The notes under the pieces: model-generated
Seen by the model: the letters and a program-made list of their open reading frames with translations, nothing else
Told to the model about the DNA's origin: nothing
The model's database searches: none
Part shown: positions 9,150 to 63,993 of the stretch, in pieces
How positions within the stretch are numbered: the first letter of the stretch is position 1
How the letters are laid out: every line of letters begins with the position of its first letter
Position numbers and translations under genes: made by a program
Virus record (IMG/VR): IMGVR_UViG_3300045738_002140
Span: 50,177-114,176 of that record
Strand: one strand, 5' to 3'
DNA: 64,000 nt
Origin: a virus

Positions 9150-9177
9150 ATTATAAACTAATATGGCAAAAAGGCAA
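9150..9177 (-). promoter_or_regulatory. sigma70-type promoter for the glycan operon, leaderless
   Basis: TTGCCT-16-TATAAT, ATG 5 nt after -10. Confidence 0.65.
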
Positions 9178-9487: not shown

Positions 9488-9519
9488 AAAAAAGAAAAGC
9501 CCCATAAAAAATGGGGCTT
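9488..9519 (-). terminator. intrinsic terminator
   Basis: AAGCCCCAT/ATGGGGCTT stem followed by U-rich tract on minus strand. Confidence 0.75.
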
Positions 9520-18601: not shown

Positions 18602-18654
18602 AAAAGGGGGGGCAGCGCGGCACTGATATGAAAACGGTTATGCCTCGCCGCCCC
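18602..18654 (-). terminator. GC-rich hairpin with 16-nt loop (terminator or sRNA)
   Basis: GGGGCGGCGAGGCAT/GTGCCGCGCTGCCCC stem then CCCTTTT. Confidence 0.55.
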
Positions 18655-18663
18655 GTTGTTGGT

Positions 18664-33852: not shown

Positions 33853-33858
33853 GTGTAA
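33853..33858 (+). promoter_or_regulatory. GTGTAA putative phage promoter element
   Basis: 8 nt before ATG 33867. Confidence 0.5.
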
Positions 33859-33866
33859 TTTAGTTC

Positions 33867-34175
33867 ATGAGAAAGGAGCTATCTCAAGCTATCGACAGCC
33901 TTGTTGTCCAGTCAAAATTTGAAGGAATTGACCTTACAATAAAAGAAGGACTAGGTAACGCCGCAATAATAGCCAATATATCTGCCCAAAAAGTAGCGCT
34001 TTTAGGGATAGACGACAAAAACTCCATACACGCGCTAATGATTGACATAAACAGGTGGAAATGGGCAGAAGATGAAGGCTTCACCATGGAAGACGTAGTA
34101 GAGAAGCTTTCTGACGAAATATTCACAGAAGTACGCCTCCACAGGCTAGTATATGAGCTCAATAAAAAACAATAG
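33867..34175 (+). CDS. hypothetical protein
   Basis: ORF. Confidence 0.65.
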   Translation: MRKELSQAIDSLVVQSKFEGIDLTIKEGLGNAAIIANISAQKVALLGIDDKNSIHALMIDINRWKWAEDEGFTMEDVVEKLSDEIFTEVRLHRLVYELNKKQ

Positions 34176-49825: not shown

Positions 49826-49838
49826 ATTTTAAATAGAT

Positions 49839-50309
49839 ATGAAAACTTTCACAAAATGGTTCCTGCTCAACGCAGTCACGTTAACTGCTGTTTTTTTTGC
49901 AGAAACAAAAGGCGCAATCTCAACAATGGTTAAAAATGATGTTAGCTATATAACCATTGTTATAATGGCCCTATACGTGGTTATCTCTATAATGGTGGGA
50001 AGGCTGTGCTTTTTGTCAGACAAAATAAACAAAGGCAGAGAAAAAGAAGCGAGAAGGCACCTATCAAAGAGAGCAGAGGTTGGCTGGTTCGCCGCAGAGC
50101 ACTTTTTTTCGCTCGGCCTGTTGGGTACAGTTTTTGGGTTGTGCCTAGCAACCTCAACCAATCTTGGTACAGACGCCCCCGTAAGTGATATAGTAGCTGG
50201 GCTCAAGGTGGGACTAAACACTGCATTTTATACTACCATTTGTGGCATAGTATTCAGCCTTGCCCTGCAAATACAACTAATGATTTTAAGATTTAAGCTA
50301 GAGGAATGA
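49839..50309 (+). CDS. MotA/TolQ/ExbB proton-channel family protein
   Basis: LGLLGTVFG, GLNTAFYTTICG. Confidence 0.88.
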   Translation: MKTFTKWFLLNAVTLTAVFFAETKGAISTMVKNDVSYITIVIMALYVVISIMVGRLCFLSDKINKGREKEARRHLSKRAEVGWFAAEHFFSLGLLGTVFGLCLATSTNLGTDAPVSDIVAGLKVGLNTAFYTTICGIVFSLALQIQLMILRFKLEE

Positions 50310-61330: not shown

Positions 61331-61528
61331 ATGAAAGCACAGCCAAGATTAGTTAGACTAACAAAAATGGACGAGGACAAAGAAGTTCTGGTAAACTGGA
61401 TGGCCGTGACATACGTTTACCCCACCTCCGCGAGAGGAAAAGGTGATTACAGTGATGTTTATTTTATAGGAGGCTCATCGCTTCCCGTAAAAGAAACAAC
61501 TGAAGAAATTCAACTTCTTGTAAAATGA
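61331..61528 (+). CDS. FlbD-like small protein
   Basis: RLT...VLVN...V..V...G..L.VKETTEEI. Confidence 0.55.
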   Translation: MKAQPRLVRLTKMDEDKEVLVNWMAVTYVYPTSARGKGDYSDVYFIGGSSLPVKETTEEIQLLVK

Positions 61529-61878
61529 AAACATTTGCAGTAGAGGGGTGCAACTGGCACACGGAAGTTCAAATAAACGATGAACTTTTTGAAAATGAGA
61601 TGGACATGGCTTTTGAGGCCATGACGCAGGGGGTGGAGCGTTTCATTAACGAGGACGAAAGAATAGAGTTGGTTGGCTACGATGAACCCGCGCTAGGGTT
61701 TTTTATGGCAGCGCATGATAGCAGCAAAAAAAATAATTCAACAAATAAGGCGATGTGCCTCACGGAAAAGCTGCTGGTTAATGGGGGTTTTTATGACATA
61801 GCAACAGAGTTTGAAAGCCAGATGCACGGAGCAATAGAGCAGGAGCAACAGGACAAAAAAAACAAGAAGAAGCCTTGA
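61525..61878 (+). CDS. hypothetical protein
   Basis: ORF. Confidence 0.6.
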   Translation: MKTFAVEGCNWHTEVQINDELFENEMDMAFEAMTQGVERFINEDERIELVGYDEPALGFFMAAHDSSKKNNSTNKAMCLTEKLLVNGGFYDIATEFESQMHGAIEQEQQDKKNKKKP

Positions 61879-61903
61879 CTTTTGTTTGATTATATTTTAT
61901 AAT
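61875..61903 (+). promoter_or_regulatory. sigma70 promoter, leaderless
   Basis: TTGACT-17-TATAAT, ATG 5 nt downstream. Confidence 0.85.
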
Positions 61904-61908
61904 TATCT

Positions 61909-62670
61909 ATGAGAACATTGCAGAGCCTGTTGTTACTTTTTTTTACTCAATCTTTATTTTCTGCGCCCCAATTCAGTACGGAGAACATCGAGGGATGGAC
62001 GGTTTATCTAAATAAAAGCGCAAATAATAAAGCCAAAAACGAAGCAAGGGCTTTCCTCGCTAAAGACCTCCGAATTATTAAACAAAAAGTGCCAAATAAT
62101 GCGCTTGATGTGTTACAGAAAATCTCAATCACCGTGGGTCGAGGGTCAAATAAATTCTGGGCAAAATATAGTTACGGAAATAAGAGCGTTGAATTTAAAA
62201 GCGTTAAGGGCTTTATAGACGGGAGGGGCGTTTACCCAGATGTAGTCCTTCACGAAATGGCTCATGGGTATCACACTCTTAAAATTGGTCTTGATTACAG
62301 AAAGGATTCTCCAGACGGAAGCGTCAGCAAGGAACTAAAACAATCATTAGTCGCGGCTTGGAAAAGACACAAGACAGACTACTCATCCCTTGGAAAAAAT
62401 GCGCTCACCCCCAAAAATAAGCCCTCAAATAGCTTTTTCCTAAAGTGGGCTACCCTAAACCAGCTTGAGTATTTTGCTGAAATGTCAACCACACACTACG
62501 GAGTTCATAGGTATTGGGCCGAAATAAAAGATAAAGATTCAGAAAGAGTGATAGGTGAGCTTTGGGGAGAAAAAAAAACAGGCCAAATAAAAGAAGTAAA
62601 TAAGAGGACATTTGCCCATCCGCTTACCAGACGGGGCTTGAGAATCTTAATGAGGCAACCCCAAAAATAA
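61909..62670 (+). CDS. secreted zinc metallopeptidase (HEXXH)
   Basis: Signal peptide; IEGWTV; VLHEMAHGYH; EYFAE. Confidence 0.82.
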   Translation: MRTLQSLLLLFFTQSLFSAPQFSTENIEGWTVYLNKSANNKAKNEARAFLAKDLRIIKQKVPNNALDVLQKISITVGRGSNKFWAKYSYGNKSVEFKSVKGFIDGRGVYPDVVLHEMAHGYHTLKIGLDYRKDSPDGSVSKELKQSLVAAWKRHKTDYSSLGKNALTPKNKPSNSFFLKWATLNQLEYFAEMSTTHYGVHRYWAEIKDKDSERVIGELWGEKKTGQIKEVNKRTFAHPLTRRGLRILMRQPQK

Positions 62671-62673
62671 ATT

Positions 62674-62702
62674 TTGATATTTTAGGGTCAGCTCGATATA
62701 CT
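62674..62702 (+). promoter_or_regulatory. sigma70 promoter with no ORF before the next terminator
   Basis: TTGATA-17-TATACT. Confidence 0.75.
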
Positions 62703-62707
62703 ATTAA

Positions 62708-62780
62708 GTAACTCTGCGACAAAAATAAAGCTGGACGAGGTTTTGCTCCTTTCTCTCCTTGTTCGGCTTTATTTTTTTTT
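62708..62780 (+). ncRNA. candidate hairpin sRNA with anti-Shine-Dalgarno loop
   Basis: 20-bp stem 62721-62740/62757-62776 (with G-U pairs), 16-nt loop containing CTCCTTTCT, U tract. Confidence 0.55.
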
Positions 62781-62792
62781 AAGTATTTTAAA

Positions 62793-62798
62793 GTGTAA
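62793..62798 (+). promoter_or_regulatory. GTGTAA putative phage promoter element
   Basis: 8 nt before ATG 62807. Confidence 0.5.
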
Positions 62799-62806
62799 AT
62801 AAGGGC

Positions 62807-63202
62807 ATGGCAGCAGCAGAGCTAATTAGCCCTAATTTTATAGAAAGATGGCAGCAGGAAGGCTTTTTACCCAAAGGGGTGATTAGCTGCGAGAGGTGTA
62901 GCTGGACAAACTATACCGTGGAAGAATACAAGATTCTCTACGAACACAAGAAGCTCGCTTATTTTTTCTTTATTAGCGACGACGAGAAGATTGAAGAAAC
63001 CCCATTCCTTTGTCATGGTTGTTTATTTAATGAATTAAAAAAAGCCGCTGGCAACGAACCCTTGAGAGTAACACTCTTGGACGAGGAGAACTCATACAGT
63101 TGCGAGCTTATTCCAGAAGAATGGATGGACGGCGACCCTTACCCAGAACCAGAAGAAAGTGACGAGGATGATGACGAGGACTTTTGGTTTCCAAAAGAAT
63201 AA
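62807..63202 (+). CDS. zinc-finger-like protein with acidic tail
   Basis: CERC...CHGC. Confidence 0.65.
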   Translation: MAAAELISPNFIERWQQEGFLPKGVISCERCSWTNYTVEEYKILYEHKKLAYFFFISDDEKIEETPFLCHGCLFNELKKAAGNEPLRVTLLDEENSYSCELIPEEWMDGDPYPEPEESDEDDDEDFWFPKE

Positions 63203-63211
63203 TTTTTTTAC

Positions 63212-63240
63212 TTGACACGGCATGAACCCTATTGTAAGGT
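63212..63240 (+). promoter_or_regulatory. sigma70 promoter, leaderless
   Basis: TTGACA-17-TAAGGT, ATG 6 nt downstream. Confidence 0.7.
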
Positions 63241-63246
63241 AGGTCA

Positions 63247-63993
63247 ATGCAAGCACAACTAGACTTCATCGGAACCCCGAAAGTAGAGCGGGAACCAGAG
63301 CAGTTTGCTCTTTGGAACAGAGAGGGCAAACCAAACAAACCACAAAAAGACATTGACTTCGCCAATGTTGATACCCTATTTAACTCATTCGATTCGGAAG
63401 AAATTGAACGCTATAAAAATTATTGGGAAAGCGTTAAGCCCAAGAATGATACAGAGATATTTCAGCGTTGGCTTTTTGCTTTTATGTCCGTCCACACAGG
63501 TTGGGAAGCCAACGTGAGAGGCTACGAAGCCGTTAAGGATTGGACTAAATGGGTAAACCGTGATGATGAGCTTGAACGACTGCTCGTACAGAGTCGAGTG
63601 GGCTTGCATAAAAATCGTACAAGATTTATCTCACAGTTTGCCCAAAAATTTTGGAGTGACCCCGAATGGTATAAGCACCAAGAAGGTAACTGGCAAACAC
63701 TCCGCGACAGGCTCGTCAAGAGCATCCTTGGCCTTGGCATAGCAAAGGTATCGTTTTCTCTTGAAATGATTTACCCCAACAAGGCAGAAGTAACCTGTAT
63801 GGATACTCACTTGTTTCAAGCGTATGGGCTTAACCAGACGAAGGACGCTCGCCGCTATAAGGAAATCGAAGACTATTGGCTAGGTATGTGCCGTATGTGG
63901 AACGTGCCATCATACATTGCACGGTGTATCTTGTGGGACAGAAAGCAGGACAAAACCGACAGCAGATATTGGAGCTATGTATTGGAGGATTAA
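63247..63993 (+). CDS. HhH-GPD DNA glycosylase-like (Ogg2/thermostable 8-oxoG glycosylase-like)
   Basis: RDRLVKSILGLGIAKVSF HhH, CMDTHL, Y.EIE. Confidence 0.7.
   Translation: MQAQLDFIGTPKVEREPEQFALWNREGKPNKPQKDIDFANVDTLFNSFDSEEIERYKNYWESVKPKNDTEIFQRWLFAFMSVHTGWEANVRGYEAVKDWTKWVNRDDELERLLVQSRVGLHKNRTRFISQFAQKFWSDPEWYKHQEGNWQTLRDRLVKSILGLGIAKVSFSLEMIYPNKAEVTCMDTHLFQAYGLNQTKDARRYKEIEDYWLGMCRMWNVPSYIARCILWDRKQDKTDSRYWSYVLED

Follow-up and report, generated by a model that had tools for sequence, protein, structure and literature searches.

The gene at positions 61909-62670 of the window, the 64-kb stretch of DNA that was analysed, encodes a metallopeptidase-like protein of 253 aa on the plus strand and ends with a TAA at 62668-62670. 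This accessory protein carries a HEMAHGYH motif and has a weak match to Peptidase_M90 with the invariant HExxH. By eye, its sequence begins with a hydrophobic, signal-peptide-like N-terminus. The gene is the last of an early rightward block and is preceded by a sigma70-like promoter, TTGACT-17-TATAAT (61875-61903, plus strand); only 5 nt separate its -10 box from the ATG, so that the mRNA would be leaderless. It is followed by a 136-nt gap (62671-62806) and then by a second plus-strand gene (62807-63202), the product of which has 131 aa, two cysteine pairs and a strongly acidic C-terminal tail; no family match was found for this protein. The gap holds a promoter-like site, a hairpin and, 8 nt before the ATG at 62807, a GTGTAA element (62793-62798, plus strand). 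There is no plus-strand ORF of at least 30 aa in the gap and no ATG 3' of the -10 box of the promoter-like site. On the minus strand, no start codon follows the complement that resembles a ribosome-binding site, and the only ORF is one of 32 aa with a TTG start, 24 nt away. The features on which the original prediction was built, namely the promoter-like site, the 20-bp stem, the loop, the U tract and the lack of an ORF, were all recovered in place, as was the GTGTAA element that it had assigned to the next gene.

The window is the end of a 114,176-bp record of an uncultured virus, and its DNA was found in seawater and marine metagenomes from several studies. The phage has hundreds of relatives in IMG/VR. 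Its proteins include a tape measure of 3,611 aa, a J-like tail protein and a DnaE-type polymerase, which is only 25-31% identical to the DNA polymerases of cultured phages. The genome is A+T-rich and 95% coding, with a non-coding share of 4.6%. The lineage has a tmRNA, two further orphan structured RNAs and tRNAs, among them a tRNA-Ile(UAU) in the genome of this phage. There is weak evidence that the host lineage is Planctomycetota or Verrucomicrobiota; a secretin-like phage protein gave weak matches in 6/301 Verrucomicrobiota and 1/301 Planctomycetota genomes.

The peptidase-like protein has cellular homologues that are 25-30% identical to it, mostly from Planctomycetota and Verrucomicrobiota and, with Armatimonadota added, nearly all from these three phyla, a weak clue to the host lineage. 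Two homologues, P0001 and P0003, reach 57% identity to the peptidase.

The hairpin (62721-62776, plus strand) consists of a 20-bp stem, in which 62721-62740 pair with 62757-62776, and an open pyrimidine loop of 16 nt, UUUUGCUCCUUUCUCU (62741-62756). The loop contains CUCCUUUCU at 62746-62754, and a second CUCCUU at 62755-62760 extends into the stem. The upper 11 bp of the stem comprise six G-C, two A-U and three G-U pairs, and the lower 9 bp are formed by an A tract paired with a U tract. The U tract, UUUAUUUUUUUUU (62768-62780, plus strand, with a T run at 62772-62780), lies directly 3' of the G+C-containing upper stem. The hairpin alone has a folding energy of -24.0 kcal/mol and a z score of -6.95, and none of 200 shuffled sequences folded as well; the upper 11-bp stem alone contributes -14.6 kcal/mol, and the 77-nt RNA predicted from this locus has a z score of -4.70. 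The minus-strand fold of the same region is poor (z = -1.2), because the three G-U pairs turn into C-A mismatches. The fold and its strand specificity therefore indicate that the structure was selected as a plus-strand RNA. A search of Rfam gave no match at the gathering thresholds, and relaxing the E value to 10 brought up unrelated families only, all far below threshold.

The hairpin begins 50 nt 3' of the stop codon of the peptidase-like gene, at the end of a plus-strand block. It resembles intrinsic terminators with an upstream A tract in having a G+C stem, a U tract of at least 9 nt and an A tract that extends the stem. It is also placed like them, a short distance 3' of a stop codon on the coding strand, where two transcription units meet. 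Other clear terminators of this phage, at ~9490, 16100 and 21130, are likewise built of an A tract, a stem and a U tract, and near 9490 there is a second case of a terminator followed by GTGTAA. While the stable G+C stem, the adjacent U tract and the position at the end of a transcription unit are those of a terminator, the loop is not of the usual short kind. Intrinsic terminators typically have loops of about 3-8 nt and the phage's other terminators have loops of 4-7 nt, whereas the loop here has 16 nt, the stem includes three G-U pairs, and a promoter is located between the stop codon and the stem. A consensus terminator scan did not list the hairpin because its loop exceeds the limit of 8 nt set in that scan. 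The only other hairpin with a loop of 16 nt is the one at 18602. The hairpin is most probably a plus-strand intrinsic terminator that closes the sigma70-driven early block, where transcription would be expected to end. The original prediction would have counted as refuted if the hairpin were only the terminator of the upstream peptidase gene, and the hairpin does lie where a terminator of the upstream block is to be expected.

The promoter-like site, TTGATA-17-TATACT (62674-62702, plus strand; TTGATA at 62674-62679 and TATACT at 62697-62702), is sigma70-like and agrees with the consensus at 10/12 positions. Only 18 nt separate TATACT from the stem, and no start codon lies behind the promoter. 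When the 53-nt spacer that separates the stop codon from the hairpin was shuffled, a promoter-like site of at least 10/12 appeared in only 1.2% of the shuffles. The class to which the site belongs is real. In ten cases, a sigma70-like promoter ends 5-7 nt ahead of an annotated ATG, compared with ~0.4 expected by chance (the promoters at 9177, 21179, 51691, 57034 and 61875 are examples), and a -10 box this close to the start codon means that the mRNAs are leaderless. This result, together with the absence of SD (Shine-Dalgarno) enrichment, bears out the premise that the mRNAs of the phage are leaderless or lack SD sites. The Ogg-like gene that follows the 131-aa gene has a TTGACT-type promoter a few nucleotides before its ATG in 10/10 relatives.

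In the genome as a whole, 48 sites score at least 10/12, ten of which have the -10 box in the non-coding 4.6%. Six of these ten have an ATG at +5 to +7, three lie before the tRNA-Ile or the RNA genes 20768 and 34798, and the remaining one is the site described here. In co-directional intergenic DNA, sites of at least 10/12 were found seven times in the sense and never in the antisense orientation. The looser 9/12 sites, in contrast, were near chance (25 vs. 18.9 +/- 4.4; 14 sense vs. 8 antisense). Both hexamers of the present site, TTGATA at -35 and TATACT at -10, are among the weaker members of the class. By this test, which operates only at the level of the consensus, the promoter at 62674-62702 is probably genuine. 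Since it belongs to a validated class and is not followed by a start codon, it is likely to give rise to a separate non-coding RNA of ~70-77 nt. The spacing seen in the leaderless class would place the RNA start at 62708-62710, giving a predicted single-stranded 5' leader at 62708-62720 (plus strand), and the RNA would end in the U tract. The appearance of a stand-alone unit of promoter and terminator with no ORF, as first described, holds in that the promoter scores 10/12 and the plus strand is free of ORFs.

The GTGTAA element is probably part of a second, phage-specific promoter class. There are 24 copies of GTGTAA in the genome compared with 71 expected, yet eight lie within 40 nt upstream of a gene start on the strand of the gene, where ~0.6 would be expected; the other sites include those at 33853, 31639, 30784 and 30335. 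The element is also kept upstream of homologous genes in L172, L299, L300 and L302.

The conservation of the region was assessed in a ~93% identical relative (run X12). There are 20 differences over 62637-62932 (296 nt), none of which falls within 62695-62782. Both hexamers are unchanged, the two substitutions in the promoter region being confined to the spacer, and GTGTAA is intact. The probability of finding no change is ~0.009 for the 62-nt hairpin, which is therefore under purifying selection; the corresponding value of 0.33 for the loop alone is uninformative. This relative is the only one in which the hairpin is identical. When 42 related records, among them a complete 172-kb genome, were searched with a covariance model of the hairpin, no homologue was found; the same held for 10 closer relatives whose Ogg-like genes are 75-84% identical, and the matches in related records and other loci were at chance level only (E of about 0.2-0.5). 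With no homologue in these 52 records, there is no covariation in support of the stem, and the loop conservation with stem covariation envisaged in the original prediction was not seen. The phage collection and IMG/VR gave no match containing the peptidase gene, the 131-aa gene or the local DNA, and exact-pattern scans for the hairpin and for the loose end of X12 returned nothing.

The absence of the hairpin from the relatives is explained by their synteny, which omits the unit of peptidase gene and hairpin. These phages have either g61525 with the Ogg-like gene directly behind it or a homologue of g62807, equipped with GTGTAA and free of the hairpin, with the Ogg-like gene behind it. In L172/L173, for example, a protein 36% identical to the 131-aa protein is encoded directly upstream of the Ogg-like gene, and no hairpin precedes its gene. 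No peptidase gene is present in any related phage record in which the neighbouring genes occur. However, contig L002, the one contig that a metagenome scan yielded, retains g61525, the leaderless promoter and the peptidase gene, inside which the contig ends; the promoter sequence and its spacing before the homologous gene are identical to those in the window. From this arrangement, the peptidase gene with its promoter and terminator behaves as a variable, moron-like unit.

Comparison with L172-L181 and L002 shows that a variable cassette site (61525-63247) separates g61525 from the Ogg-like glycosylase gene. Its contents in the relatives are small unrelated ORFs, the g62807 homologue or, in L002, the peptidase gene. 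Record 3 of X12, a 151-nt contig of the metagenome that also contains the ~93% relative, aligns to 62743-62776 (the loop and the 3' arm) with 4 differences, and its upstream part is unrelated sequence ending in ...GAGTTTTGCTC. It may represent a second, diverged copy of the element that belongs to another phage.

As it stands, the element is a strain-level singleton and its primary explanation is an ordinary one, a terminator at a module boundary. On balance, we lean toward a dual-use element, that is, a module-boundary terminator that also yields a short orphan RNA. The hairpin would end the sigma70-driven early rightward block, the last gene of which encodes a moron-like, putatively secreted peptidase, and it would insulate the next gene, which has a GTGTAA-class promoter element of its own. 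The promoter 18 nt upstream of the stem would fire into the same terminator, which would release a non-coding RNA of ~70-77 nt, with a leader of about 12 nt, then the hairpin and its open pyrimidine loop of 16 nt, and finally a U tail. If this RNA acts in trans, the loop would be expected to pair with AAGGAG-type purine tracts. Against dual use, the 16-nt loop exceeds the size that is usual for efficient intrinsic terminators, and the promoter may be a chance or vestigial match.

An arrangement of this kind has precedents among sRNAs that derive from the 3' ends of mRNAs. Those of the DapZ/MicL type have a promoter of their own, share a terminator with the mRNA and contain a single-stranded pairing region. 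The present element is similar in its independent promoter near the end of a gene, its shared terminator and its single-stranded region. It differs in that the promoter lies just after the stop codon and not inside the coding region, and in that the putative pairing region is the terminator loop and not a 5' seed. If the short RNA is real, it would add to the RNA genes of a marine phage lineage in which such genes are already numerous. The lineage itself is a useful natural system for the study of translation control where SD pairing matters little, because its early genes are leaderless and it makes no use of SD sites.

The possibility was considered that the hairpin is a terminator only and that TTGATA-17-TATACT is silent, either as a chance sequence or as what remains of a leaderless gene that has been lost, so that no separate RNA is made. 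The position and anatomy of the hairpin fit this explanation, promoter-like sites of 9/12 are near chance in such A+T-rich DNA, and among the relatives the element does not show the conservation of an RNA gene. However, a silent site is difficult to reconcile with the strict sense orientation of the sites of at least 10/12 and the rarity of such a site in the shuffled spacer. Furthermore, each of the other nine intergenic sites of equal quality has a product behind it, and ~50 nt of conserved spacer would be left otherwise unexplained in a genome that is 95% coding. We consider this explanation rather unlikely, although it deserves serious attention.

If the dual-use element does release a short RNA, its partners might be found among the mRNAs of the phage itself. 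Pairing of the loop with phage start regions was not enriched in windows of -30..+6, the reverse complement of the loop gave nothing when compared with the phage start regions, and the 5' leader showed no significant pairing with any of them. In windows of -20..+20, the best loop-complementary site was GAGAAAGGAGC (33869-33879, plus strand), which takes in the G of the 33867 start codon and codons 2-4 of that gene. The match is perfect over 11 nt and has an energy of -20.3 kcal/mol, the best among 133 start regions (the next being -14.7 kcal/mol), a level that was equalled by 2/1000 shuffled loops. The element could, on this basis, encode an antisense RNA in which loop positions 62745-62755 pair with the 11 nt that follow the AU of the 33867 start codon and delay translation. 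It would suit such a role that the mRNA is only weakly structured and has the site at its 5' end, and that the gene is near-leaderless and of the GTGTAA class. However, seven sense-strand sites of -20 kcal/mol or stronger occur inside genes, so that ~0.3 sites would be expected by chance in the 5.3 kb of start regions, and the 33867 match is unremarkable. Moreover, the signal emerged only after the windows had been shifted from -30..+6 to -20..+20, the match is set by the codons for R-K-E-L, which are kept as K-K-E-L with one mismatch in the closest relative, and the two partners occur together in no relative. An antisense role at 33867 is accordingly regarded as improbable.

Phage regulatory RNAs of 70-80 nt include lambda oop, P22 sar, P1/P7 c4 and P4 CI, and the loops of c4 pair with the ribosome-binding regions of specific phage mRNAs. 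The predicted RNA is of similar size and would have its own promoter and a terminator hairpin like these RNAs. They, however, are antisense to or matched with defined targets with which they are co-conserved, whereas here there is no overlapping antisense gene and the sole candidate target is at chance level.

The hairpin at 18602 was also compared with the phage start regions. It lies on the minus strand (18605-18662), in the gap between two genes of that strand and immediately ahead of the start of a dCMP-deaminase-like gene, and has a 14-bp G+C-rich stem, a loop of 16 nt and a z score of -3.9. The loop has a perfect 11-nt complement, GATATGAAAAC (49836-49846), across the start codon of the ExbB-like gene 49839. 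This pairing was rejected, the A+U-rich duplex having an energy of -12.8 kcal/mol, no better than that of shuffled loops. The original prediction had joined this hairpin and the tRNA-Ile(UAU) with the present element in a translation-takeover kit. Both do exist, but the support for a kit is limited to their co-occurrence.

The original prediction had read the loop as a copy of the anti-Shine-Dalgarno tail of 16S rRNA. Exactly 9 nt of the loop are identical to that tail, but the full CCUCC core is missing, the first C being omitted. The proposal was that an early sRNA carrying this copy masks AAGGAG-type SD sites of the host and shuts off host translation, while the leaderless or coupled mRNAs of the phage escape. 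Several features are in keeping with this idea. The open loop does contain CUCCUUUCU, the phage is SD-free with leaderless early genes, and a promoter of the early class is likely. The exact loop 16-mer has 112 matches in IMG/VR, mostly antisense of ordinary ribosome-binding sites; in 37/73 distinct contexts, it is the antisense of AGAGAAAGGAGCAAAA followed by an ATG within 0-4 nt. To judge from these contexts, the complement of the loop is a canonical ribosome-binding site that is used in other phages.

The use of SD sites by the phage was evaluated by pairing to the generic 16S tail across 99-132 phage genes. Pairing of -6 kcal/mol or stronger was found in 18% of upstream regions vs. 17.5% of gene interiors, compared with 39% vs. 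7% for E. coli, which was run through the identical crude script as a control. The start regions of phages mirror those of their hosts. Since this phage makes no use of SD sites, even in its leadered internal genes, the ribosomes of its host are probably SD-independent as well, which argues against a shut-off based on SD masking. In loci dominated by Planctomycetota and Verrucomicrobiota, SD enrichment was weak (21% vs. 15%), and Planctomycetes are reported to be among the phyla with small fractions of SD genes (PMC5397173). A host that is poor in SD sites would therefore offer few SD-led mRNAs for selective silencing. In addition, the element is absent from the 52 related records, and a single short RNA would have to titrate the entire mRNA population. 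The seven equally strong loop sites inside phage genes mean, furthermore, that the phage would not be protected by sequence alone. In 114 kb, CTCCTTTCT is found once on each strand, close to the frequency expected.

A general shut-off of host translation is thus unlikely, and the masking of host SD sites in the form first proposed is highly improbable. In a narrower version, an early RNA of ~75 nt would block SD-dependent initiation on the SD-led minority of host mRNAs or on purine-rich late leaders of the phage; we regard this version as very improbable too, if a shade less so. If it were true, an SD-blocking RNA would amount to a re-partitioning of ribosomes between two modes of initiation by RNA only, and the leaderless and SD-free messages of the phage would be immune to it.

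The closest parallels for a loop of this kind are the Cuckoo and alpha-r14 sRNAs of Alphaproteobacteria, which likewise expose an SD-complementary pyrimidine loop on a stable hairpin, together with other sRNAs in which C- or U-rich loops mask SD sites. However, the Cuckoo and alpha-r14 RNAs have at least two hairpins with CCUCCUCCC-type loops, whereas the present one has a single hairpin with CUCCUUUCU and without CCUCC. It is, moreover, a phage-borne singleton with no Rfam match in what seems to be a non-SD system.

A promoter that fires into a nearby terminator can also serve as a checkpoint. In lambda, a constitutive promoter runs into a nearby terminator to give the short PR'-tR' transcript (6S RNA), and StxS of Stx phages arises in the same way. 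By analogy, the hairpin might be a promoter-proximal terminator that is read through by antitermination or attenuation, with the short RNA as a by-product. The predicted arrangement here is the same, in that a promoter and a short leader are followed by a strong terminator and, further along, by genes in the same orientation, and the size of the loop might make termination less efficient or allow a factor to bind. In contrast to 6S RNA and StxS, the genes downstream have promoter elements of their own, in the form of the enriched GTGTAA 8 nt before the next ATG and the conserved sigma70-like promoter of the Ogg-like gene, and no antiterminator or qut-like site was identified. Together with the leader, in which no alternative antiterminator fold was seen, and the homologous gene in L172, which appears to be served by GTGTAA with no hairpin, this makes a checkpoint highly unlikely.

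In the course of the loop searches, a conserved intergenic hairpin with the loop UUUUGCUCCUUU was encountered in unrelated G+C-rich phages (L193, L194, L206, L231, L247, L262, L266 and L297). The 19 nt that it shares with the present loop are within chance, and it was rejected as a relative. The UUUUGCUCCUUU hairpin (for example, L247:2850-2960) is located shortly 5' of a strong AAGGAGG site, which precedes a gene of 545 aa. A compensatory stem change is present in one contig, and the hairpin looks like a cis anti-SD element.
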